Source of the DNA: an uncultured Fibrobacterota bacterium
Lineage (GTDB): Bacteria; Fibrobacterota; Chitinivibrionia; Chitinivibrionales; WJKA01
DNA: 64,000 nt
Assembly: GCA_964589825.1 (NCBI GenBank)
Contig: CAZPUS010000010.1
Coordinates: 14,862-78,861 of the forward strand
Reading direction: 5' to 3'
Position numbers and translations under genes: made by a program. This document shows positions 8,431-64,000 of the stretch, piece by piece (the stretch's first letter is position 1; each line of letters starts with the position of its first letter). The notes beneath the pieces are model-generated. The model ran no database searches and was not told where the DNA came from. It saw only the letters and a program-made list of their open reading frames with translations.

Positions 8431-8564
8431 TCCCCGACAAGATCAAATACCGCAGCTGCCTTCAGTGCAGCACTGGCACACATTATTTTTTGCCTACACA
8501 TTTGTTGTACAGGATATATCCGGTGTGATTCTTTGCTCTTCATGCGACACTGAGCGATTTTTTA

Positions 8565-8621
8565 CCTAAATTGCGCGGTTTTTTATGGAAAGCTGTTGTC
8601 ATCAAAACACCTCAGGTTAGG
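8565..8621 (+). repeat. possible short (57-nt) derivative of the inverted-repeat element family (copy G)
   Basis: CCTAAATTGCGCGGTTTTTTATGGAAAGCTG resembles the 5' part of copies A/B/E (CCyrAATTGnrCGrTT...TTTTATGAAAGCTG). The ends CCTAAATTG / CAGGTTAGG can pair (7 WC, 1 G-T, 1 mismatch). It lies 23 nt upstream of the mgtE start. Confidence 0.35.
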
Positions 8622-10913: not shown

Positions 10914-10935
10914 AATAGTCCCCCGCTTTCTTTAC

Positions 10936-11096
10936 CCTGAATTGAACGATTGTTTTAATGAAAGCTACGGTGAACCGTGCATGCTTTCGTGCTCTCGAAA
11001 ATTGCGGGGCAACCTTATTTGTTGGCTCTTGGTTTTCAAGAATGCAAGAGTTGTGCCGATGGCAGCAGCTTCACAAACAGAATTGCTCGATTCAGG
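10936..11096 (+). repeat. inverted-repeat-bounded conserved noncoding element, copy A (161 nt)
   Basis: The terminal inverted repeat is CCTGAATTGAACGATT (10936-10951) / AATTGCTCGATTCAGG (11081-11096). Internal blocks shared with copies B, C and D are TTGTTTTAATGAAAGCT, CTCGAAAA...TTTTCAAG and GATGGCAGCAGCTTC. It is flanked by TTTAC on both sides. Intergenic. Confidence 0.8.
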
Positions 11097-11376
11097 TTTA
11101 CGTAACACGTTTAATAATCGTGATCCATAGAAATTAAAGAGAAATAACATGAAACCGGTTCATGCTGTCATTATTTGAGGGTACGCGTTTTCAGGGTGTG
11201 ATAATCCGGACTCCATCACTGCCCGGTCATCTCTGATCCGGAAAACGAAGAAGAGGCACTCCCGGAATGGTGCTGTGGTATGAAAACCCGGCGTTATCCC
11301 GTGCGGATATTACGTGTTGAAAAAAACTGCAACCGTCTGTCCTTTACGCCTTCTGTACCATGCCTGTTCCTGCGCA

Positions 11377-12465: not shown

Positions 12466-12627
12466 CATGAATGCAACGGTTGATTTTATGAAAGCTGCGA
12501 TGAGCCGTGCTGCTATTGTGTTCTTAAAAAGTGTAAGACAACCTTGCTGGTTGTCTCAATGATTTTCGAGAATATGCACGTAGTACGGATGACAACAAAT
12601 TTCGCACACAAATCCGCTCAATTCGGG
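12466..12627 (+). repeat. inverted-repeat-bounded conserved noncoding element, copy B (162 nt)
   Basis: CATGAATGCAACGGTTGATTTTATGAAAGCTGCGATGAGCCGTG...GACAACCTTGCTGGTTGTC...TTTTCGAGAAT...CCGCTCAATTCGGG. By hand alignment it is about 80 percent identical to copy C over a 97-nt core. Intergenic. Confidence 0.8.
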
Positions 12628-12710: not shown

Positions 12711-12944
12711 TTATTGCGAATCTTCTCCTTTGTCCGAATCAGTCTCCTCAGGCCTGGAAAATCCTGCTTCACCCGCGTTTTCATACTCCTCTTTTTTCTG
12801 CACCAGTTGCGTTACCAGCGCCTGTATTGCCGTGCTTTTTTTTTGCAGTATACTTATTCTGCTCCATATAAAGACCAGAATAACGGTAAAGAATACCATA
12901 TTGACCAGCCAGGCGATTTTCACATAAGCGACAGAACTTTCCAT
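12711..12944 (-). CDS. small membrane protein (one TM helix, short coiled coil, acidic tail)
   Basis: 77 aa with TM helix IAWLVNMVFFTVILVFIW followed by ILQKKSTAIQALVTQLVQKKEEYEN. The layout resembles FtsB/FtsL, but no family can be asserted. Confidence 0.4.
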   Translation of the reverse strand: MESSVAYVKIAWLVNMVFFTVILVFIWSRISILQKKSTAIQALVTQLVQKKEEYENAGEAGFSRPEETDSDKGEDSQ

Positions 12945-13233: not shown

Positions 13234-14439
13234 ATGCATACACTTTTTTTTGAATGCAGCAGCGGTGCAAGCGGAGACATGATACTCTCCGCACTTTTCG
13301 ACATGGGGGTTCCGGCACCCCGGATTGGGGAACAGTTACACAGACTCCCCGTTGGAGAATTCAGTATCGAAGTAAAACCTACATATCGCAACGGTATCCG
13401 CTGCAGCAGTCTCCATATCGAATATACCGCGAACCAGCCCTTTCGACATCTGCATACCATTACCGAGTCTATTCACAACGCCGGCTACAGCAGCTGGGTA
13501 ACAGAAAACAGCATCGCGGTATTGCGCCGGATTGCAGAGGCTGAAGCACATGTACACGGTGAACCGATTGAAAAAATCCATTTTCACGAAATCGGGGCGC
13601 TGGACACCATTATCGATATAGTGGGAACGTGCCTGTGCCTGGAGTATCTGGGCTGCCCTGATATTCTGTTTTCCACACTGACCACAGGACACGGAACTAT
13701 AAAGACGGCACACGGTACTATCCCCGTACCCGCTCCCGCCACAGTAGAAATCGCCCGTGGGTTTTGCATGAAACGCCTTGATGTTGAAGACGAACTACTC
13801 ACTCCAACAGGATGTGCGCTTTTAACCACGCTGGGGACACAGAGTGAAACCACGAGTACGGCACTGATGCGTACGTTTGGCTACGGATGCGGTACAAAAC
13901 AGTTTCCGCATCATCCAAATGTACTGCGCGTTATCGAGTTGCAGGAGAGCGCCGGCCACACACAAAGTGGTGGACTGCAGCGTGTGTGTATGCTCGAAAC
14001 GGATATCGATCATATCTCGGGTGAAGATATGGGCTTCGCGACACGGATGTGTCGTGAAAACGGTGCTCTCGATGTTGTCTGGTCTCCGATCTATATGAAA
14101 AAAGGACGACCCGGTTATCGACTTTGTGTTCTCTGTGCGCCGCATCTGGCCCGATCCCTTACCGAGACCATCATTGCGCATACGCACACACTGGGGGTCC
14201 GTCAACACGATTTGGCGCGCCGATGCGCCGAGCGAGAACCCGGCACTGCCGTCTTTCCCGCGCAGAGTATGTTCCCAAATGAAAAAGTTGCCACAAAAAG
14301 CTGCCGATACCACAATATTCATTTTTCCAAACCCGAATACGAATCGCTCGCCGAGATCGCGAAAAAGTATTCAGTACCTCTTGCACAGGTACGGTCTGCA
14401 TTCAACGAGTCATGCGCCGACATGGATTTTCATAAATAA
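13234..14439 (+). CDS. larC: nickel-pincer cofactor biosynthesis protein LarC (DUF111 family)
   Basis: 401 aa. The N-terminus FFECSSGASGDMILSALFDMG matches the LarC SGxSGDM signature, and HFHEIGALDTIIDIVG is present. AAAGGAG lies 10 nt upstream of ATG 13234. Confidence 0.8.
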   Translation: MHTLFFECSSGASGDMILSALFDMGVPAPRIGEQLHRLPVGEFSIEVKPTYRNGIRCSSLHIEYTANQPFRHLHTITESIHNAGYSSWVTENSIAVLRRIAEAEAHVHGEPIEKIHFHEIGALDTIIDIVGTCLCLEYLGCPDILFSTLTTGHGTIKTAHGTIPVPAPATVEIARGFCMKRLDVEDELLTPTGCALLTTLGTQSETTSTALMRTFGYGCGTKQFPHHPNVLRVIELQESAGHTQSGGLQRVCMLETDIDHISGEDMGFATRMCRENGALDVVWSPIYMKKGRPGYRLCVLCAPHLARSLTETIIAHTHTLGVRQHDLARRCAEREPGTAVFPAQSMFPNEKVATKSCRYHNIHFSKPEYESLAEIAKKYSVPLAQVRSAFNESCADMDFHK

Positions 14440-14446
14440 GGATACC

Positions 14447-17400
14447 ATGCAGATGCACCATGTATCTATCACAACATGCCTGATCGCACTGTGTCTCACC
14501 CTGTTGAGTTTTCAATCCGAATCTCTCGCGGGCTTCACGATTGTCCAAAAGGAGCAACACCGGATAGTCATGCAGTGGCATCTGGACAGGTACACGGTCG
14601 ACACCGCTTCTCACGGCGCAACGGCACACTCTTTTATACAGACATCTGATTGTGATATCCTCATGCAAACCAGCAACGGTACAGTGCTCCCGGCTCGAAG
14701 TATTGCGCTCGGTATCGCAGATGAGGGTGCCCTTCGAATCTCACTTCGAGCGGACCGAATTCATACCAGAACGCTAAAGTACCCACCGGAGCGCACCCAG
14801 GATGCGGAAACCGGTCACACGAGCGAGTCGGTAGAAGAAGCCGGTCGCGCCATCGCCTCAGGCTCGTCACAATGGCACAGCGGAATTGAATACAGTCGTA
14901 TTCGCGGACAACGCATCGCCAAATTCGCGCTTCAGCCGTTTCGCCATCTCCCCGGCACACAACGGCTTATGGTACTGAAACATGCGACCGTAACAATTAC
15001 TCTGCCACGGGCCGCTTCCCGGACACCGGGCAATGCCACTCGCTACCCTGCATCCGTCGAACGTCTTTTAAAGGGACTGCTGCTCAACTATACCGAGGCC
15101 CGACAATGGCGCAACGATCCTGCACCATCACTTGCCAAACGGACGGCACGCCACTCTCTGCCGGTTAAGGATATGATCACTTTTACTGTCGGCGACGGTA
15201 ATTCAGGCTATCGCGAAACCACGACCGAAGAAAACGGCATCTATAAATTCGACCACGCATTTATCCGCTCCTTCTACCCCGACAATGTGGTCCACATGGA
15301 TCGTGTCGCTTTATATGCCGCGCGCAGAGGCGAAATGGACAGGCACGCTCCCGCCCCCGACAGCATCCCTTCTCACAGTATACAGATCCCGTTGTATCCG
15401 TACGATGCGGACGGCGACAACATTCTTGACACCGAGGACTTTTTTCTGGCATATTGTTCCGGTGCATCGGGGTGGTACTACAACGAATCGGACTCTGTTT
15501 TTATGTTTGAGCTCGACCGTTACAATAACGCCCGTACTTACTGGCTCGGTATCGACATTAGCTCCGATCCGGCACGGATTCGCACCAAATCGGCACTTGA
15601 TCCTTTTACCGGTGCCCGTACCGTCAGCTCCACCCCGCATTATACAATGCTGAAAAAGAGTGTTTCACTGCCAAGCCGCCGGTCATTTGGAAGCGTGGAC
15701 CGAATCTGGCAATCGATTTCACAAAATGCTACTATGAACATTACGCTTCCCGATATCACTGAAGAAGCAGAAGGAGAGGTGTTTTTATATCCTGATGCAT
15801 CACATTTCAATATCAGCGCTATGTATGGCGCAGATACCCTTTCTACGATATCCACTTTAATGCGACCTCCACCGGTTTCATCTCCTGTTTCACCAACCGA
15901 ATGGTTTCGCATTCCCTTCCTTATGAACGATATCAACACCTTGCGGCTTAGAAACCAAAGCGGTAATCCGGCTGAAGTCTATTCGGTTACACTGCAATAT
16001 AATCGCACGCTGACGATGAAAAGCGACACACAATTCTCTTTTTTCTCAGTACCCGAATCACGCATTGTCAGGTACAGCCTCGACATATCCGGCCACGACG
16101 TGGATTCGCTTCTTCTCTTTAAAATCGATAACTCTCAACAGCACACTACACTATTGGACAGCTCCTCGCTGCAGTATACAGAATCAACAGTAAGCTGGTA
16201 TGACAGCGGTGGTCAAGGCATTCGCTATATCGCGCTTAAAAAAGGAGCCTGTCGCACCCCACGTGCCGGGACCCATATCGCCCGCCTGCAGGACAGCACC
16301 CTTGCTGTATCACACGATGAATATATCATCCGCAACCTTCGCACGAACACCCACCAGAGCGATTACTGTATCATAACCCATCGTCGCTTTCTTTCTGCAG
16401 CGACCAGACTCGCACATCATAAAAAAACATCGGCTAAATTCTCAAACCCTTGTGTTGTCATGACGGGGGACATCTATCGCCAATTCTCCGGCGGTAATAT
16501 CTATCCCGCTGCGATACGAAATTTTCTCTCATGGGCGGTGCATCACTGGGCTGTACAACCCGAGTACGTGCTTTTATTGGGAAACGGCAATTACGATCCA
16601 AAACAGACCATGTCAAATGAAAAGACCTTCATACCAGCATATCACTATCATGGAAGATGCAGTGACAATTTTTTCGCATGTGTCAACAAGGGTGAAACCC
16701 ACAACAGCTCACCCGATCTTTTTCTGGGCCGTATTACATGTAGCAACGCCGAAGAGGCGATGAATGCCGTCAATAAAATAACTCAGCTGGAAAACCCCGA
16801 TTCTCTTCAAACTGTATCTGCACAGGCTTGGAGGAACAATGCGCTCCTGGTTGCTGACGATGATATGCAGAGTACCAGCATTGATCACACGTCCCCTGCG
16901 CATTATCTAAGCTCAGAACGACTTGGTCAACAGTTTTACAAACAGCATCCCTGGATTAATCTCAGCAAGGCCTATCTGTTCGAATATCCATGGAATGACA
17001 TAATGGAAAAGCCGGATGCCGGACAGGCTATTATTAATGCCTTTAACAGAGGCGTTGCATATGTCAACTATTTCGGGCACGGTGGTCCGACTATGTGGTC
17101 CGATGAACACGTGCTGACCACCCTTGATCTCAATAGACTCAACAACAAAGGGAAATATCCGCTTGTGACATCATTTTCATGCAAGGTCGGATTGTTTGAT
17201 AAACCTGACCACGAATCCCTTACCGGCGCACTTGTTAACCTGGCGGATGCGGGGGCGGGAGTGGGAATTGCCTCGGCCCGTGATGCCTATGCAAGCTCCA
17301 ATGAAGATCTCAGTCTCCTTTTTTATTCCGCACTTTTCGACACCTCAGGCAACTATAGTGCTGGTGCGGCATACAGCCATGCAGTTGAAAAGAAAATATC

Positions 17401-18625
17401 GAGCCTTAATACAGAAACGTACATTTACTTTGGCGATCCGTCTTTATCGTTCACGTCGTATTCCTACTCAGCAGATCTCGAATTTACCAATGCCGACGGC
17501 AATCGCATCACTTTGGATACGGTACGTGCACTCCAGAGATTTTCTGTGAGGGGTCGTATCCGCCCTCGCAACACTTCTACCGAGTCCTTTGATGGTTCAC
17601 AATCACCATCCTATATTCAGGTGCGGATTTCCAACCCGCCCCGAACCGCCGGCAGAAAAGATGGTGGGACAAATCAGAGTATTCGTTACACACTCCCCGG
17701 TCAGGCGGTTTTTTCCGCACAGACCGAAATACATAACGACTCCTTCTCCATTCCTGTTTCCATCCCTAAAAACGTGGTCTACGACGTTGCAGGCGCCAAA
17801 TTGACTGCATTTGCATGGGATGCGCAAAGGGAAACGTACGCTGCAGGCTTTCGGGAGGATATCCTGTTTCACGGAACTGCGACCAGTCAGGTAAACGATA
17901 CTGCAGGACCGACCATTACACTCAGACCGTTATATTATAACACCAATCGTAACATGGATGGAGCTCTGGAAGATAACATAACTGCTTCGCTGCCGTTTCA
18001 GCTCGAAGTCACCGTATCCGATCCCAATGGAATAGACCTCTCCGGAACAGGTCCCGGAGAAGGCGTACAAATAGAAATTCCGGGTCTGCTCGGCCGTCAG
18101 AATATCAACGGCAAACTCCAACTCAGCAATGATGATTACAATACCGCCGAAGGTGTAATTGGCTTTGACAAAAACCAGACTGAACCAGGCACCTATGCCC
18201 TTAATGCGCACGCAAGCGACCTGCTCGGTAATGCAACACACAAAAGAAGTACCCTCGAAATTGTACCCAATGATACCCTGCGCATTACCAGGGTACTCAA
18301 TTATCCTAATCCAATGCGCCTTGATGCGACAACCAGATTTTTCATCTACACGTCGTCTCCATCGACACAATGGGCTGAAACATATAATTATTCTTACTCT
18401 ATTTCGGTATATACGCTTACGGGGAAACGGGTTTGGCACGCCACTCGGGATCGTGTACCAATTGTCTGGGACGGCAAAGACCGATTCGGCAACAAACTCG
18501 CTCCCGATGTATATCTTTATAAGGTAAAAGTGACCGACAAGACCACGTCGCAGATTGAACCTCGTACAAAGGAAAGTACCTTGCATAAACTGGTAATCGT
18601 TCCCCCCAAAACTAATTACCCCTGA
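14447..18625 (+). CDS. secreted peptidase C25 (gingipain family) with T9SS C-terminal sorting domain
   Basis: ORF 14126..18625 trimmed to ATG 14447 (MQMHHVSITTCLIALCLTLLSFQSESLAG, a signal peptide). The catalytic contexts are VNYFGHGG (His codon 17078-17080) and TSFSCKVGLF (Cys codon 17180-17182), which parallel gingipain NYTGHGS / DVACVNGDF. The C-terminus is LNYPNPMRL...SISVYTLTGKRVW...DVYLYKVKV, a T9SS/FlgD-Ig-like CTD. Confidence 0.85.
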   Translation: MQMHHVSITTCLIALCLTLLSFQSESLAGFTIVQKEQHRIVMQWHLDRYTVDTASHGATAHSFIQTSDCDILMQTSNGTVLPARSIALGIADEGALRISLRADRIHTRTLKYPPERTQDAETGHTSESVEEAGRAIASGSSQWHSGIEYSRIRGQRIAKFALQPFRHLPGTQRLMVLKHATVTITLPRAASRTPGNATRYPASVERLLKGLLLNYTEARQWRNDPAPSLAKRTARHSLPVKDMITFTVGDGNSGYRETTTEENGIYKFDHAFIRSFYPDNVVHMDRVALYAARRGEMDRHAPAPDSIPSHSIQIPLYPYDADGDNILDTEDFFLAYCSGASGWYYNESDSVFMFELDRYNNARTYWLGIDISSDPARIRTKSALDPFTGARTVSSTPHYTMLKKSVSLPSRRSFGSVDRIWQSISQNATMNITLPDITEEAEGEVFLYPDASHFNISAMYGADTLSTISTLMRPPPVSSPVSPTEWFRIPFLMNDINTLRLRNQSGNPAEVYSVTLQYNRTLTMKSDTQFSFFSVPESRIVRYSLDISGHDVDSLLLFKIDNSQQHTTLLDSSSLQYTESTVSWYDSGGQGIRYIALKKGACRTPRAGTHIARLQDSTLAVSHDEYIIRNLRTNTHQSDYCIITHRRFLSAATRLAHHKKTSAKFSNPCVVMTGDIYRQFSGGNIYPAAIRNFLSWAVHHWAVQPEYVLLLGNGNYDPKQTMSNEKTFIPAYHYHGRCSDNFFACVNKGETHNSSPDLFLGRITCSNAEEAMNAVNKITQLENPDSLQTVSAQAWRNNALLVADDDMQSTSIDHTSPAHYLSSERLGQQFYKQHPWINLSKAYLFEYPWNDIMEKPDAGQAIINAFNRGVAYVNYFGHGGPTMWSDEHVLTTLDLNRLNNKGKYPLVTSFSCKVGLFDKPDHESLTGALVNLADAGAGVGIASARDAYASSNEDLSLLFYSALFDTSGNYSAGAAYSHAVEKKISSLNTETYIYFGDPSLSFTSYSYSADLEFTNADGNRITLDTVRALQRFSVRGRIRPRNTSTESFDGSQSPSYIQVRISNPPRTAGRKDGGTNQSIRYTLPGQAVFSAQTEIHNDSFSIPVSIPKNVVYDVAGAKLTAFAWDAQRETYAAGFREDILFHGTATSQVNDTAGPTITLRPLYYNTNRNMDGALEDNITASLPFQLEVTVSDPNGIDLSGTGPGEGVQIEIPGLLGRQNINGKLQLSNDDYNTAEGVIGFDKNQTEPGTYALNAHASDLLGNATHKRSTLEIVPNDTLRITRVLNYPNPMRLDATTRFFIYTSSPSTQWAETYNYSYSISVYTLTGKRVWHATRDRVPIVWDGKDRFGNKLAPDVYLYKVKVTDKTTSQIEPRTKESTLHKLVIVPPKTNYP

Positions 18626-19669: not shown

Positions 19670-19795
19670 TGTCTTTATCCGGTGTTGATTTATCTAATGG
19701 ACAGTATTTACCTCTGTTCCTGCCCCATTATGCTCCTGTGCTGCTATGCGCCTTCCGGTAACTTACTCCATACCACGCATCGTCTATCGAATGCT

Positions 19796-20083
19796 CTAGG
19801 TATTTGAAGCGCTCTCTTTTTTGGATGATTTTTCACCTGATGAGGATCCTGCCGAACCTGTATTCTTTTCTGCTTTTGCCGCCTTCTTGTAAGAATCCGA
19901 ACGATAATCCGTAATATAGAAACCGCTCCCCTTGAACAGTAACCCTCCTCCTCCTGATATAAGCCGTTGAATACGGCCGCCGCATTCTTTGTTTTTACAC
20001 TCGGTGAGCGGCTGATCATTCATTGACTGAAAAACCTCAAAAACCTCTCCACATTTGTCACATTTATATTCGTACGTAGGCAT
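19796..20083 (-). CDS. FmdB-family putative regulatory zinc ribbon protein
   Basis: ORF trimmed to ATG 20083, with GAGGAG 6 nt upstream. MPTYEYKCDKCGEVFEVFQSMNDQPLTECKNKECGG is the CxxC...C..C FmdB signature. Confidence 0.8.
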   Translation of the reverse strand: MPTYEYKCDKCGEVFEVFQSMNDQPLTECKNKECGGRIQRLISGGGGLLFKGSGFYITDYRSDSYKKAAKAEKNTGSAGSSSGEKSSKKESASNT

Positions 20084-20118
20084 ACGCAACTCCTCTGCTT
20101 CTCAACAACGATAATTAT

Positions 20119-20475
20119 TCACGAGATTGTAATCCCGAATTTTCGGAAAAAATAATTTATGCCTGTATCATTCCTGACAATGCAGTGCGAGTAAGAAAAA
20201 CCCTCTTTTAAAAACGCATGGCTTCCCGGGCTAAAAAACAAAAACTCCCCCGATGTCAAGCCGAGGGAGTTTTTGCTCACATCACTTACACAACAAATGA
20301 GTATCCGCGAATCGACAGACTCGATTACCGCATGCAAGCCATTGCTTACATCTTTCAACGTATCCTGATTTTCATCATCAAAACTCCAGTTCGCAACCGA
20401 TGAAGTGTCGACTGCCGCATAGAGCATGCGAGTAATTACCATTACCAAAATGGTTGCTGCGTGTGCCACACTCAT
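20119..20475 (-). CDS. doubtful hypothetical ORF
   Basis: 118-aa ORF with no recognisable family. A perfect 10-bp terminator-like hairpin lies inside it (20240-20274), which argues against translation of the full length. Confidence 0.25.
   Translation of the reverse strand: MSVAHAATILVMVITRMLYAAVDTSSVANWSFDDENQDTLKDVSNGLHAVIESVDSRILICCVSDVSKNSLGLTSGEFLFFSPGSHAFLKEGFSYSHCIVRNDTGINYFFRKFGITIS
20240..20274. terminator. bidirectional intrinsic-terminator-like hairpin
   Basis: AAAAACTCCC (20240-20249), a 15-nt loop, then GGGAGTTTTT (20265-20274). This is a perfect 10-bp stem with an A-tract on one side and a T-tract on the other. Confidence 0.4.
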
Positions 20476-20623
20476 ACCTACAGCCCCAATTTTTTAAATG
20501 TATGGATAGGGTTAGACTATTCTATTATGGAAAACGCTTAATTTGGGTTTTAGCATTATTTTTTAGCAACCCATACGATAGCCGGGGGGCCATAATACAA
20601 AACACGTATACTATATTATATGA

Positions 20624-41776: not shown

Positions 41777-42123
41777 TATGGTTCGTCCCTGCGAAAAAGG
41801 TTCCTCCTACAGAACGCAGCCCATACAGCGCAATCGTATGCATTGTACTGCACGCCTCGTGATCCGGCAGCCACTCCATCGAAAAAAGCTCCAATCGCCC
41901 AGCCGTATGGACCACGATATGATACAATACCATTAATTTTTAAAAAACGAAGCCTAAATATACAATTTCACGAACGCGATTATTATCCTCCCCAAAAAAA
42001 TAACACGTCCGTCATTCCACACGGATGGCATAGACTTTTGAAAAATAAAGGGAGACTATCGCGCGTGCGTTGTCATGGTCCTTAAATTGCAGCAGTTACA
42101 ATGATGTGAACCGCCATGGCGAT

Positions 42124-42372
42124 TCACTCATTGCGATTGATTACGCCTCTCGCACTGCGGTGAGGTGTTGACGCCACTGCAAAATATTTTTCAACGAGTT
42201 GTGCAGTTGTCAATACGTGCAGGTCTATAATCAAATCAATAATTTGTTCGCGAGTTATTGCTCTGGGATTGACCCGGTTTTCGTTTTCCGGTAAGACGCG
42301 GCGGTTATCTACATTCTGGTGCATCATACGACACCTCCCTGTGAAACAATGAAGTAACGCGTCGCAGCCCAT
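42124..42372 (-). CDS. hypothetical small protein
   Basis: 82-aa ORF, the only ORF in a gap of about 1 kb. No family recognised and the start is uncertain (internal Met-Met at residues 16-17). Confidence 0.3.
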   Translation of the reverse strand: MGCDALLHCFTGRCRMMHQNVDNRRVLPENENRVNPRAITREQIIDLIIDLHVLTTAQLVEKYFAVASTPHRSARGVINRNE

Positions 42373-42750
42373 AGGCTCTTCGGGGCTGCTCTCTATATTA
42401 TACTCATCGGCTGAAAAAATGTCAACCTGAAGTCTGTTAACTACCGCGTTTTTTCACATTTTTTGCCCTTTGAACATAATTGATTGTCTGCATTAATGCG
42501 ATATGCCCAGCACCAACTGTGCTAAGGTGCAGATCAATGCCGACAGGCTGAAAAAAACCTCTTGCCCGGCAGAAGTAGCAACTCCCGTCAAATCACGTGG
42601 CGATTGGACCCGGGGTAGCATATTCGTTTAATATCGGCAGGTATACACCTGAATTGAGAATAAATGCCGCCCGTTTTTAACATCGGATTATCTATACCCA
42701 CTCCGTAACACGAGGAGCGTAATACTATACCCTGAAAATGGACCGGCCAT

Positions 42751-49274: not shown

Positions 49275-49541
49275 CTAATGCAGAATGGATGGCAGGGAAA
49301 ATAGCTTACGGGATCTACCATATCCGAAACGCGCATAGAAAATACCGAAAATTCCGAAGAACAATTTGTACACATCTACAACCCGTTCTGTTACAAAAAA
49401 CCAAGATACCCAGCTGCAGCTTACTACCTTCATGATAACCTTATACCTGTATTGAACGATTCCCCTTGTAAAAGCTGCTGCCATCCGCACTGCGATTATC
49501 TGCGCATTACCGTTGTGGAAAAAATCGTGTTCCGAATTCAT
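49275..49541 (-). CDS. possible small hydrophobic protein
   Basis: 88-aa ORF. Its stop abuts the start codon of the downstream acyltransferase gene, and its 5' end overlaps the upstream gene by 35 nt. Hydrophobic stretches are VVSCSWVSWFFV and LFFGIFGIFYARFG. No family recognised. Confidence 0.3.
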   Translation of the reverse strand: MNSEHDFFHNGNAQIIAVRMAAAFTRGIVQYRYKVIMKVVSCSWVSWFFVTERVVDVYKLFFGIFGIFYARFGYGRSRKLFSLPSILH

Positions 49542-52114: not shown

Positions 52115-52195
52115 ACCCAAATTGAGCGATGGGCTTCGAAAACAGAATAGCAGCACGGCTCACCGCAGCTTTTACAAAATAATCGCTCAATTTAA
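52115..52195 (+). repeat. internally deleted (81-nt) member of the inverted-repeat element family, copy E
   Basis: There is a perfect 12-bp inverted repeat AAATTGAGCGAT (52118-52129) / ATCGCTCAATTT (52181-52192). The 5' end CCCAAATTGAGCGATGG matches copy A in 13 of 17 positions. The 3' end GCAGCTTTTACAAAATAATCGCTCAATTTAAG parallels copy D ACAGATTCCGCTTACAAAACCGCTCAATTCAGG. Confidence 0.6.
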
Positions 52196-52208
52196 GACAT
52201 ATATGTTT

Positions 52209-52248
52209 AATTAAAAACGGCCTTCACAACACAAATTGCGAAGGCCGT
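52209..52248 (-). terminator. intrinsic terminator after the DUF2914-like gene
   Basis: ACGGCCTTC (52217-52225) / GAAGGCCGT (52240-52248) form a perfect 9-bp stem with a 14-nt loop. The minus strand continues TTTTAATT. It lies 24 nt after the stop at 52272. Confidence 0.7.
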
Positions 52249-55543: not shown

Positions 55544-55987
55544 TCTACGCTCCAGCGGTTATGGTGATATGGTTAGATTCGCTGTGCTTGTTCGCCATTG
55601 CGCTGACACACCTCAGGATTTGCCGGTTTTCCAAACACGGATCTCCGTAACGTGAGTGGTGTATCCACTCCCTACCGTACGCATCTCTTTCCCATTCTCA
55701 CATTAAAAATACGGCAAATAAATTGAAAAAGCAAATACTGACTGAACCAAAGGTAACCATTCGTAAAATACAATAATCACTATCGATGCAGCGTACTGCA
55801 CATAAAACTGCCCATCATTTCCACCCCGTATATCATAACGTTTCCTGTATGATATGAGCCCAAAGACGGGGTAACATTACGCATGCCGCCACTTTTATGC
55901 GTTACACCACCAACACCGTCTTTTTATAATGTATCGACGCCGGCCATGCGAGTACCAATTCGTGTATGTCAAGAATCCTTTTTTGCG

Positions 55988-56143
55988 CCGAAAAGATCGA
56001 TTGCTTTGATGAAAGAAGCGACGAGCCTTGCTGAAAATGCGTTCTCGAAAAAGATCCGGCTGTCTTGTTGGTCGTCCCATGATTTTGGGGACGCTGCAGT
56101 ACCGATGGCAACAGATTCCGCTTACAAAACCGCTCAATTCAGG
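55988..56143 (+). repeat. inverted-repeat-bounded conserved noncoding element, copy D (156 nt)
   Basis: CCGAAAAGATCGATTGCTTTGATGAAAGAAGCGACGAGCC...GTTCTCGAAAAAG...TCTTGTTGGTCGTCC...GATTTTGGGG...CCGATGGCAACAGATTCC...CCGCTCAATTCAGG. It is followed by TTGTTTTTTTTG (56144-56155). Intergenic. Confidence 0.8.
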
Positions 56144-56471
56144 TTGTTTTTTTTGCACCAAAACAGACTTATTTGGGGACCTCCTGGGTTTCAGGATTAT
56201 AGACCTAAGTCAAGAGTCGAGCCCGGAGACCATATCGTCCCAACTGTCACCATCGTAGCATGGCTTGTGCCATGTTACTATATATTATTTTGGAAAATAT
56301 GACCTCTGCGTGCATGGATTTCACGCACGGTCCGCTTTACCGATCAGGAGTCATTTTTTCGAACAGCGCGTCTCTTATGCACACCGGTCTGCGCGTTATG
56401 CGCCTACCTTCCTGCATCATTACGTTTGTATGAACAGGCAATTCGTGAATTGTACCGATAGTGCAGATCGA

Positions 56472-56640
56472 TGAATCAGACCAAAACCGAGCGTTTTTAT
56501 TCGCGAAAGCTGCTGCAATGCGCACTACTCTTATATCCTCGAAAACCATGAGACAACCAACAAGGTCGCCCATACTTTTCGAGAACAAAATAGCACCACG
56601 AGTCACCGCAGCTTTCATCAAAACAACTGTTCCATTCAGG
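56472..56640 (-). repeat. inverted-repeat-bounded conserved noncoding element, copy C (169 nt)
   Basis: The minus strand reads CCTGAATGGAACAGTTGTTTTGATGAAAGCTGCGGTGACTCGTG...GTTCTCGAAAAGTATGGGCGACCTTGTTGGTTGTCTCATGGTTTTCGAGGAT...TTGCAGCAGCTTTCGCG...CTGATTCA. It contains perfect nested inverted repeats of 9 bp and 8 bp. Intergenic. Confidence 0.8.
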
Positions 56641-56765
56641 TGAGAATGAATAGACAAAAATTTCGCGCGTATCCTTGCATTTGTACCACACAAATTGTAT
56701 AGTTTTAAGGTAGGTCTGTACAGGGATAACGACAATGAAGGTTTTTACAACCAAGGATTTTCTTT

Positions 56766-61601: not shown

Positions 61602-61860
61602 GCTACAGCTACGACCGTATATCTATACATATCGCGGAATGGTGTATGAAGGCTTCTACATGTCTCCATCGTCCGCATCAGGGTTTTCTATCCAAAACAG
61701 CCCCAAATGCCAATCCCCTCTTTTCTCCGGACAGGAGTGACAAAAGGTATTTTTTTCTTGCATTGAGACAGCACAGGATCGGTACTACCCGGGGCATATG
61801 CAGTAGTCCATGCTATCTCTTATATTCTGCCATATATCAATTATTCCGGCGGGATCATTC

Positions 61861-64000
61861 ATGAAAAAGATTGCTCAAGAGAAAAAACACGACCCTGCGC
61901 ATAAAAAGAAGCGGGTAACGCGTGCACCCGCACATTCGTTACAAAACGATGCGGGGATGCAGCCACGCATGCGTCTCGGCTTCGTACTTTTATCTATCCT
62001 TACACTCACCGCGATTTTTTTCTGGCCGGTAATCAGCGCCAAAGGGGTATTCTGGAACGATTTTATCCAGCAGTATTTTCCATACCGGATTTTCGCCAGT
62101 GTTTCCCTGCGCCAGGGAGTATTCCCCTTCTGGAACCCCTACCTTTTCAGTGGCATGCCGTTTTTTGCCGACATTCAGACGGCGGTACTCTATCCGCTCA
62201 ATCTTGCACTCGTGCTCTTTTCCTCCCCCCAATGGCTCAGTCCCTACATATTCGAACTACAGATAATTCTTCATGTCGCTTTCGCCGGCTTTGCCATGTA
62301 TCTGTGTGCACGTGATTTTCGTATTTCAATGGCCGGTGCACTTTGCGCCGCACTTACATTTATGTTCTGCGGATTCACTACTGCACACATATTTCATGTG
62401 ACCATGATACATTCTCTCGGGTGGATCGTGCTGTCGATATGGGCCGTGCGGCGTATGCTCGATACCAGAAAACTTATATGGGTTGCGGCTTCCGCATTTT
62501 TCCTGTGGATGGTATGCCTTGCCGGCCATCCTCAGCTTATGCTGTATACCTATTACTGGATAGGGGCATACCTGCTCTACCATAGTATCATTTTACTGAA
62601 GGAGAAAAAAGGATATAGACCGGTCGCATTGTCAATCGGGCTATTTATAGCAGCGGTGACTCTCTCGTTTGGCCTCTCCTCTATTCAGCTGCTTCCTACC
62701 CGTGCACTGGGAGAACACTCGATACGCGCATCCATATCCTACGAAAAATCGACCGAATGTTCCCTTCGTCCCTACAGGCTGGTCACACTGATCGCTCCCA
62801 ATTTTTTCGGCACGCCCAACAATTTTTTCTCGAAAAAAAGGCCCTTTTACTGGGGAATGAGCGAAGCCGATCGGTCCCCGGGCGCTCATTATTACTGGGA
62901 AACCGCTATTTATATCGGCATTGTCCCGCTCGCACTTATGCTATGCGCCATACTCCTGGGGCGATCGCCACCGGTCGTATTCCTCTCCCTCATGAGTCTT
63001 ATATCTCTTCTGCTCGCTATGGGGAATTCTTTCTTTCTACACTGGATCGCCTATCACGTGCTGCCAGGCTTCAGTCGGTTTCGGATTCCCGGACGCTTTG
63101 CCGCAATGTTCAGCATATCCGCCAGCCTTTGTGCGGGGTTCGGTTTTATGTGGTGTATCAACAGGGCTAGATTACTTCCCGATACCATTCGCAAACGTTT
63201 TTTGACCGTTCTGGGCGTACTTGCCGCATGTGCATTCGGAATCACCATTTTGTTTCAGGCCGGTGCGTTTAACGGGAATCTCGCTTCGTTTCTTGCCTCG
63301 AGTGGAATATTCGGTCATAACATGTCCCGTCTTACGGCAATTACGGAAAAAATGATACAACCTTCTGCTGCAGGATCCATGTGGCGTTTCACCCTCTTTT
63401 TTATTCTCTTTTCAGCAGTTGTAGCCGCCGCGCTGCTGAAGAAAATATCCGCACGAACCACTGCCGCTGCATTGCTGGTGATACTCGTATTCGATCTTTT
63501 TTCGTTTGGATGGGGGTTTTGCGCCCAAAAAAAGAGCCCTGACTCCATTTATCCCCGCACGCAGCTCATACAACAGATCAAGCGCCAGTATGAAAACGAA
63601 TTATTCAGGATTAATTCACGGAATTCAAAGCCCGGTACAAAAGGCCTTAATGGCTCGTACCTGCTGTTTCATAAAAATGCCGGCAGTGTACATCGTATGT
63701 TTCTTATGGAGGGATATACTCCGCTGCGCCTGCGTAGAAAATTCATCAACCGCCGCGATGTAACGCTCGATATCCTTAACACTAAATATAAAATAGAGGT
63801 AGATCGTAAAAGCGGTAGAAAAAGCCTTGCGCTACATACCTCCTACCTTCCTCGCGCATGGATGGCATATGATTACCGTGTGGTGACCGGACAGGAGCGC
63901 ATTAAGCAAGTACTTTACTCCTCCCAATTCGATCATACCCGAGGCATAATCCTCGAGGAAAAACCCCGCTGGTCTCAGGACGAACTCCGCTTTGACAGCA
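61861..64000 (+). CDS. YfhO-family polytopic membrane protein (GT-C-like), 3' end outside window
   Basis: By hand translation the frame is open from ATG 61861 to the window end (713 codons, no stop), so it is absent from the ORF track. It contains FWNDFIQQYFPYRIFASVSLRQGVFPFWNPYLFSGMPFFADIQTAVLYP, a YfhO-type signature, and many TM segments. Confidence 0.8.
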   Translation, partial: MKKIAQEKKHDPAHKKKRVTRAPAHSLQNDAGMQPRMRLGFVLLSILTLTAIFFWPVISAKGVFWNDFIQQYFPYRIFASVSLRQGVFPFWNPYLFSGMPFFADIQTAVLYPLNLALVLFSSPQWLSPYIFELQIILHVAFAGFAMYLCARDFRISMAGALCAALTFMFCGFTTAHIFHVTMIHSLGWIVLSIWAVRRMLDTRKLIWVAASAFFLWMVCLAGHPQLMLYTYYWIGAYLLYHSIILLKEKKGYRPVALSIGLFIAAVTLSFGLSSIQLLPTRALGEHSIRASISYEKSTECSLRPYRLVTLIAPNFFGTPNNFFSKKRPFYWGMSEADRSPGAHYYWETAIYIGIVPLALMLCAILLGRSPPVVFLSLMSLISLLLAMGNSFFLHWIAYHVLPGFSRFRIPGRFAAMFSISASLCAGFGFMWCINRARLLPDTIRKRFLTVLGVLAACAFGITILFQAGAFNGNLASFLASSGIFGHNMSRLTAITEKMIQPSAAGSMWRFTLFFILFSAVVAAALLKKISARTTAAALLVILVFDLFSFGWGFCAQKKSPDSIYPRTQLIQQIKRQYENELFRINSRNSKPGTKGLNGSYLLFHKNAGSVHRMFLMEGYTPLRLRRKFINRRDVTLDILNTKYKIEVDRKSGRKSLALHTSYLPRAWMAYDYRVVTGQERIKQVLYSSQFDHTRGIILEEKPRWSQDELRFDS

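Follow-up and report, generated by a model that had tools for sequence, protein, structure and literature searches.

A dispersed palindromic repeat with IS1380-like tips in an uncultured Fibrobacterota bacterium, probably an old MITE family

What is the short inverted-repeat sequence that lies antisense to a minus-strand gene for a 290-aa protein, 23 nt ahead of the start codon of that gene, and how did it come to stand between two copies of the pentanucleotide TTTAC? A sequence-only reading of the 64-kb window (the whole stretch of DNA analysed here) had taken this locus, copy A of a repeat, for an insertion of the kind left by miniature inverted-repeat elements (MITEs), and both observations behind that proposal were reproduced: the 16-nt terminal inverted repeat, when recomputed, forms 13 Watson-Crick pairs, 2 G-T pairs and 1 A/C mismatch, and TTTAC is read directly outside both arms, at 10931-10935 and 11097-11101. 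The frequency with which the same 5-mer occurs at two fixed positions 166 nt apart is 0.0011 in the window. The inverted repeat itself is not a product of chance, since the hairpin base is common to five two-ended copies of the repeat. As set out below, copy A is in our judgement probably one insertion of a ~160-bp non-autonomous DNA transposon (MITE), with an IS1380-type transposase as its mobiliser.

Using blastn, MAFFT and nhmmer we found seven copies in the window, namely four full copies (A, B, C and D; ~160 nt), one internally deleted copy (F) and two fragments (E and G), all of which are listed in Table 1. Every copy is intergenic; of the 10 gaps between genes that exceed 200 nt, 6 are occupied, and the repeat accounts for ~12% of the intergenic DNA of the window. 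Both orientations are seen and the relation to adjacent genes is not constant. Copy E begins directly after the stop codon of its upstream gene. The terminal inverted repeats measure 13-16 bp with a family arm consensus of CCTGAATTGAGCG...CGCTCAATTCAGG, and the arms are conserved in copies B and C and damaged in D. In copy F both arms and the first hairpin survive, and relative to A its 15-bp terminal stem (13 Watson-Crick and 2 G:U pairs) shows a single compensatory replacement, of G-C by A-T. In the window as a whole the arm motif was counted 10 times, with 1.7 occurrences expected; a lone arm at 42648 was considered as a further copy and rejected, its neighbouring sequence not being that of the element.

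Table 1. Coordinates of the repeat copies and of the parts of copy A in the 64-kb window
Feature	Position	Strand	Basis
Copy A, full length, 161 nt	10936..11096	+	nhmmer E=1.5e-48
Copy A, left flank TTTAC, putative 5-bp target-site duplication	10931..10935	+	sequence; 5/5 at offsets 0,0
Copy A, left terminal inverted repeat CCTGAATTGAACGATT	10936..10951	+	sequence reading
Copy A, right terminal inverted repeat AATTGCTCGATTCAGG	11081..11096	+	sequence reading
Copy A, right flank TTTAC, putative target-site duplication	11097..11101	+	sequence; offset scan
Copy B, full length, 162 nt	12466..12627	+	nhmmer E=4.8e-50
Copy C, full length, 160 nt, rod hairpin preserved best	56481..56640	-	nhmmer E=9e-50
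Copy D, full length, 156 nt, most degenerate, 5' arm damaged	55988..56143	+	nhmmer E=4e-47
Copy E, one-armed fragment, the element's 3' third	49445..49503	-	nhmmer E=1.9e-6
Copy F, internal-deletion derivative, 81 nt	52116..52196	-	nhmmer search and sequence
Copy G, degenerate mini-copy, ~52 nt	8565..8616	ambiguous	nhmmer E=5e-5; arm match

Each full copy aligns with its own reverse complement (nhmmer, E 1e-9 to 2e-10), and the element is therefore a diverged palindrome, each half of ~80 bp repeating the other in inverted and diverged form. In the rod structure 80.9% of cells pair, against ~40% when the partners are slid. The orientation of copy G is ambiguous because the element is palindromic. 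Two further hairpins lie near copies of the repeat. In the 1.2-kb gap between pyrG and a TPR gene (55544-56765), copies D (+) and C (-) point towards one another and enclose 337 nt that include a hairpin at 56255-56278, and a strong terminator-like hairpin of 14 pairs followed by a T-run (52217-52248, minus strand) stands after a DUF2914 gene, with copy F immediately downstream.

An eighth copy was detected on a different 68.7-kb NCBI contig with a six-frame consensus query, which returned one protein among 5.8 billion clusters. This copy forms the N-terminal extension PTLSGCFDERCGEPCCYCVLENHAATLLVVS of P0121, a 239-aa DUF2391 protein that is ~70 residues longer than its homologues of ~166 aa, the annotated start lying upstream of the element, which is read through in frame. 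Judged from this comparison, the extended N-terminus reflects a mis-annotation brought about by the repeat.

In every copy the similarity stops exactly at the inverted-repeat tips and the flanks are unrelated. This bears directly on the possibility that the repeat is not mobile at all, and represents instead a promoter or other regulatory module that was duplicated along with adjacent DNA, or the debris of recombination. The copies do fall into two groups, at 8.5-12.6 kb and at 49.4-56.6 kb, and several of them lie upstream of genes, as such an origin would have it, but the sharp ends, the two orientations, the copy on another contig and an internal-deletion form that keeps both arms all speak against it, and we regard a non-mobile origin as highly improbable. 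What the copies do form is a repeat family that is dispersed, non-coding and palindromic, has kept its terminal inverted repeats and includes deletion derivatives. Prokaryotic MITEs are short (below 500-800 bp), lack coding capacity, end in inverted repeats of ~10-30 bp, lie dispersed mainly between genes in both orientations, and are flanked, chiefly when young, by target-site duplications of 2-10 bp; the copies, at 81-162 nt, agree with this in size, lack of coding, inverted repeats and dispersal. The full copies share pairwise identities of 61-75%, with private differences of 10-22% per copy (22% in D), and with divergence of this order the family looks old and is probably inactive.

The age of the family matters for the reading of the flanks. 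With the ends of each copy set by homology to the arms of A, and not from the flanks, the left and right pentanucleotides of the five two-ended copies were TTTAC/TTTAC at A (5/5), TCTCA/TCTGA at C, read on its own strand (4/5), CCATG/TCATA at B (3/5, both mismatches being transitions), TTGCG/TTGTT at D (3/5) and TATGT/TCCTA at F (1/5). An earlier remark saw no convincing duplication at copies B, C, D or E; only the duplication of A is perfect, and partial matches are found at C, B and D. TTTAC had also been said to precede copy G (8561-8565), which we had to correct: the final C is the first base of the arm CCTAAATTG, and the real flank is TTTTA.

Taken together the five copies give 16 of 25 matching flank positions against 8.0 expected from cross-copy pairings, a figure reached by 3 of 120 permutations. 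The register with offsets (0,0) was the single maximum among 169 offset registers, and the excess was found only at k=5 when k from 3 to 8 was tested. With copy A left out the count was 11 of 20, reached by 3 of 24 permutations, and the register ranked 9 or better among the 169 offsets; binomial P was 0.001 with A included and 0.005-0.03 without it. The only perfect duplication is that of A, the very copy that prompted the finding, and copy F has the best arms, yet its flanks match at 1 of 5 positions. The residual duplication signal without copy A is weak and suggestive only. At 10-22% private divergence approximately one intact 5+5-bp duplication would be expected among five copies, and the pattern fits an old family whose duplications have decayed; the direct repeats of MITEs are known to fade with age (PMC10969869), as is reviewed along with the criteria for MITEs (PMC10969869, PMC11602168). 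For the family as a whole, these flanks make a 5-bp target duplication suggestive, not proven.

Loss of the duplications is one account of these flanks; their never having existed is another. The repeat could be a REPIN- or REP-like hairpin spread as single-stranded DNA by a Y1 transposase (RAYT, IS200/IS605-type) that leaves no target duplication, in which case the TTTAC pair would be chance or a preferred target. A perfect duplication is indeed missing in 4 of the 5 two-ended copies, the flanks are T-rich, the hairpin is strand-asymmetric, and G:T wobbles are tolerated in single-stranded DNA. IS608, moreover, inserts 3' of TTAC. However, the residual 5-bp signal falls exactly at the homology-defined ends, these ends pair with each other and do not carry separate subterminal hairpins, and the tips match those of the DDE family IS1380. 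Nor do the left flanks show a constant tetra- or pentanucleotide (TTTAC, CCATG, TCTCA, TTGCG, TATGT), and because of this inconstancy the IS200/IS605 reading was rejected. No Y1 transposase is present among the ~40 ORFs of the window, and a search of these ORFs with Pfam and NCBIfam likewise confirmed the earlier remark that the window holds no matching transposase, with no transposase, integrase or RAYT found. REPIN/REP-RAYT systems resemble our repeat in being abundant, strand-asymmetric, hairpin-forming and intergenic. REPINs consist of two short inverted REP palindromes around a poorly conserved spacer and have no target-site duplication, whereas the element described here is conserved over its whole length, shows the 5-bp duplication signal and has no RAYT in the window. 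We therefore consider a Y1-driven origin unlikely.

The IS1380 family was tested because the 5-bp duplication and the CC tips suggested it. Ends of family members were read out of plasmid records, with right ends given as their reverse complement. The ends of ISEcp1 had guided the choice of the family, so that ISEcp1 cannot count as independent evidence; the ends of IS1678, the ISSsu5-like element, the Lactobacillus (L. acidipiscis) element and IS1247 were read afterwards. ISEcp1 has the ends CCTAGATTCTACGT / CCTAAATTCCACGT, which begin CCTAAATT/CCTAGATT, the L. acidipiscis element carries CCTGAATTATTCATAC at both ends, and the IS1247-like element has CCCACATTTCCCAAGT / CCTGCATTCCCCAAGT, beginning CCTGCATT, with CCCACATTCTCC / CCGACATTTCCC in an ISPme1-like element. 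The 1678-bp IS1678 of an E. faecium plasmid carries CCTGAATAATTCATA at both ends and lies at 546/2223 within a clean 5-bp duplication, GATAG; the same CCTGAATAATTCATA is found in the ISSsu5-like element of Listeria. In the Listeria innocua plasmid pLI47-1 (position 544) the left flank of the latter is TTTAC, the same 5-mer as at copy A.

The tip CCTGAAT is common to our element and to the IS1678, ISSsu5-like and L. acidipiscis elements, and the consensus tip CCTGAATT, which is also the left tip of copy A, equals that of the L. acidipiscis element over 8 nt. Five positions (C1, C2, A6, T7 and C12) do not vary among the 10 ends read from 6 family members, and at each of them the same base predominates in the 12 arms of the present repeat. 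This likeness to IS1380-family ends is confined to the outermost 7-8 nt plus C12, with none inward of position 12, and three other members (IS1380A, one from Bradyrhizobium and one from a cyanobacterium), each read at a single locus, gave no resolvable ends with the motif. As read from the plasmid records, then, the tips of the element are identical to those of a subgroup of IS1380-family elements. Published descriptions give the ends of ISEcp1 along with its AT-rich 5-bp direct repeats (PMC6061673, PMC7864471), and for IS1247 an inverted repeat of 16/13 and a direct repeat of 5 bp (PMC3281130, Table 2).

The resemblance has several parts. IS1380-family elements, like our repeat, have terminal inverted repeats of ~14-16 bp starting with CC and tips of the form CCTGAAT / CCTRNATT with a C at position 12; their target duplication is 5 bp and AT-rich, and the repeat has a putative one of 5 bp at copy A, with a suggestive residual signal in the 5-bp register elsewhere. 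In contrast, members of the family are ~1.65-1.7 kb long and encode a transposase, whereas the element is 160 bp without a transposase gene and without internal similarity to them, and its host, a Fibrobacterota-like MAG, is not among the sampled hosts of the IS1380 family. Both the tips and the putative 5-bp duplication suggest that a transposase of the IS1380 family mobilised the element, which is probably IS1380-derived. A search of the genome for an insertion sequence with similar ends had been proposed earlier; such sequences do exist elsewhere, as the IS1380-family elements in the plasmid records, a family that makes 5-bp duplications. With these in hand, and with the duplications of the other copies appearing decayed rather than absent, the MITE interpretation is supported.

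Under the MITE interpretation a simple chain of events can be envisaged. Either strand of the element can form a long rod-like hairpin, with the terminal inverted repeats as its base. A DDE transposase, which we infer to be encoded elsewhere in the genome and which would be of the IS1380 type acting in trans, would bind both terminal repeats, cut at the CC tips and insert the element by means of staggered cuts 5 bp apart. Repair of these cuts would leave the 5-bp duplication, which at A would still be intact (TTTAC) and at B, C and D would have been worn down in part. Against this model stand the observations that no copy is young, that no empty site or polymorphic insertion was seen and that the window contains no transposase; tblastn of IS1380 transposases against the window gave no match and no remnant.

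A further observation that a purely DNA-level model does not predict comes from the pairing within the rod. At opposing rod positions the consensus has 9 G:T against 1 A:C, and copy C has 14 against 1. The minimum free energies are likewise asymmetric. On the sense strand they were -68.6 kcal/mol for C (z=-7.6), -57.2 for A (z=-4.3), -45.0 for B (z=-2.2) and -25.1 for F (z=-2.8), and on the antisense strand -33.3 for C (z=-2.9), -45.2 for A (z=-3.1) and -37.2 for B (z=-1.4), the sense strand thus folding better in those full copies that still fold, while the antisense z of F was slightly better (-3.2). These properties could indicate that the copies are ~160-nt structured RNA genes or cis-regulatory hairpins expressed from the 'sense' strand, for which the inverted repeat would be the closing stem and TTTAC a coincidence. 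The sense strand outdoes both shuffled controls and the antisense strand in A and C, the bias of the consensus and of C runs towards pairs that are G:U in RNA, and covariation is present, if modest, at five double-changed pairs, where shuffling gave 2.6 and 22 of 500 shuffles attained five.

Among copy-specific single-side transitions away from a Watson-Crick majority pair, 13 gave G:T and 12 gave A:C, and 22 further changes were plain mismatches; most derived changes therefore break pairs, which argues that no purifying selection acts on pairing. Copy C, in which 5 of 6 derived changes are wobbles, is the exception among the copies. Copy D has lost its stable fold altogether (z=+0.97), and 3 of the 7 copies are deleted or truncated. 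From the 13 versus 12 derived transitions, the unfolded D and the deleted copies it follows that the strand asymmetry was inherited from a founder and is not maintained. The copies decay neutrally and are not conserved RNA genes. Orientation to adjacent genes is also inconsistent (A antisense, E and F sense), no recurrent promoter or terminator was found at the element ends, and in Rfam no family matched the element, only a tRNA reaching the gathering threshold and the best E between 10800 and 13300 being 6.7. Together with the confinement of the family, in our searches, to its source genome (see below), these results make an RNA-gene origin distinctly unlikely. Although speculative, the founder may nevertheless have been shaped to act single-stranded: some copies, such as C in the gap that separates pyrG from the large TPR gene, might have been co-opted as transcribed regulatory hairpins (RNase III or terminator-type), or the family might transpose via a strand-specific single-stranded DNA intermediate despite its DDE-like ends. 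We consider either variant improbable.

The element has no coding capacity, as its open frames differ among copies. A small-protein reading was entertained, in which an invariant ATGAAAG opens an ORF beginning MKAAVSRAAILFSK, and was rejected because the frames diverge after indels. In copy A this ORF spans 10958-11137 (plus strand) and the same frame is present in B, C, D and F; across the copies it opens with MKA(A/T)V(S/N/T)R..., and in several it extends up to 59-63 codons.

Beyond the source genome the family was not detected by pattern, blastn or protein-consensus searches. The 'distant' mode of blastn found no relative of the element in plasmids, phages and 5,426 complete E. coli genomes, and a strict 21-position pattern applied to GTDB genomes, JGI metagenomes and viral contigs returned nothing but chance matches to ribD-like coding sequence in Terracidiphilus and Ideonella. 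The adjacent 290-aa protein has its best homologues, ~60% identical, in MAGs labelled Chitinivibrionales or Fibrobacterota; at five loci of such relatives the element is absent and synteny is not shared. The exact protein is on record only in the 87.7-kb NCBI contig and in a Logan contig (SRR13334649). The latter, the sole near-identical contig and 99.9% identical to the window, also has copy A.

The window otherwise represents ordinary chromosome, with mgtE, larC, the type IX secretion sortase gene porU, pyrG, argG, aconitase, LPS glycosyltransferases and one tRNA. Several details of its gene map may be recorded here. Two gaps of ~1 kb each (19670-20623 and 41777-42750) contain no long ORF, repeat copy or Rfam match at gathering threshold. 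In the large gap beside copy B, a 77-codon ORF (12711-12944, minus strand) may represent a genuine small gene, in which case the gap would be shorter than assumed. The ORFs for LarC (13234-14439) and PorU (14126-18625), both on the plus strand, have 314 nt in common; since similarity to PorU sets in at residue 367, the true start of PorU is probably much later. An open frame of more than 731 codons (61800-64000, plus strand), missing from the ORF list, continues beyond the right-hand edge of the window, which makes the final 2.4 kb coding sequence and not intergenic DNA.

Among known repeat families, ERIC and Correia (NEMIS) had been named earlier as likenesses, and the comparison holds as an analogy only; the 5,426 E. 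coli genomes contain no similar sequence. ERIC (IRU) sequences of enterobacteria are, like the element, imperfect palindromes of ~130-160 bp lying between genes. They are often found in transcribed DNA, and their mobilising enzyme is unknown. The element has no E. coli blastn match in either 'near' or 'distant' mode, does not show similarity to the 127-bp ERIC consensus, and differs at its termini. Correia elements differ by description: they have 26-bp terminal inverted repeats, duplicate TA and carry an IHF site, and our element shows none of these features. As small intergenic repeats of Neisseria with terminal inverted repeats they nonetheless resemble it, also in their full-length and internally deleted size classes, and long-hairpin transcripts have been predicted for Correia (PMC10969869).

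The family is previously undescribed, while the kind of element it represents, a MITE, is ordinary, and our knowledge of how MITEs work is left unchanged. What is added is a MITE family from an uncultured Fibrobacterota/Chitinivibrionales-like lineage, together with a testable parent in the form of an IS1380-type transposase. For work on this genome and its relatives there are practical consequences as well: the repeat probably fragments short-read assemblies, has led to the wrong annotation of at least one protein start (P0121), and contains an ATGAAAG-initiated, non-conserved frame that gene callers could pick up. For the organism itself, copy A lies so close to a start codon that it may affect expression of the 290-aa gene.
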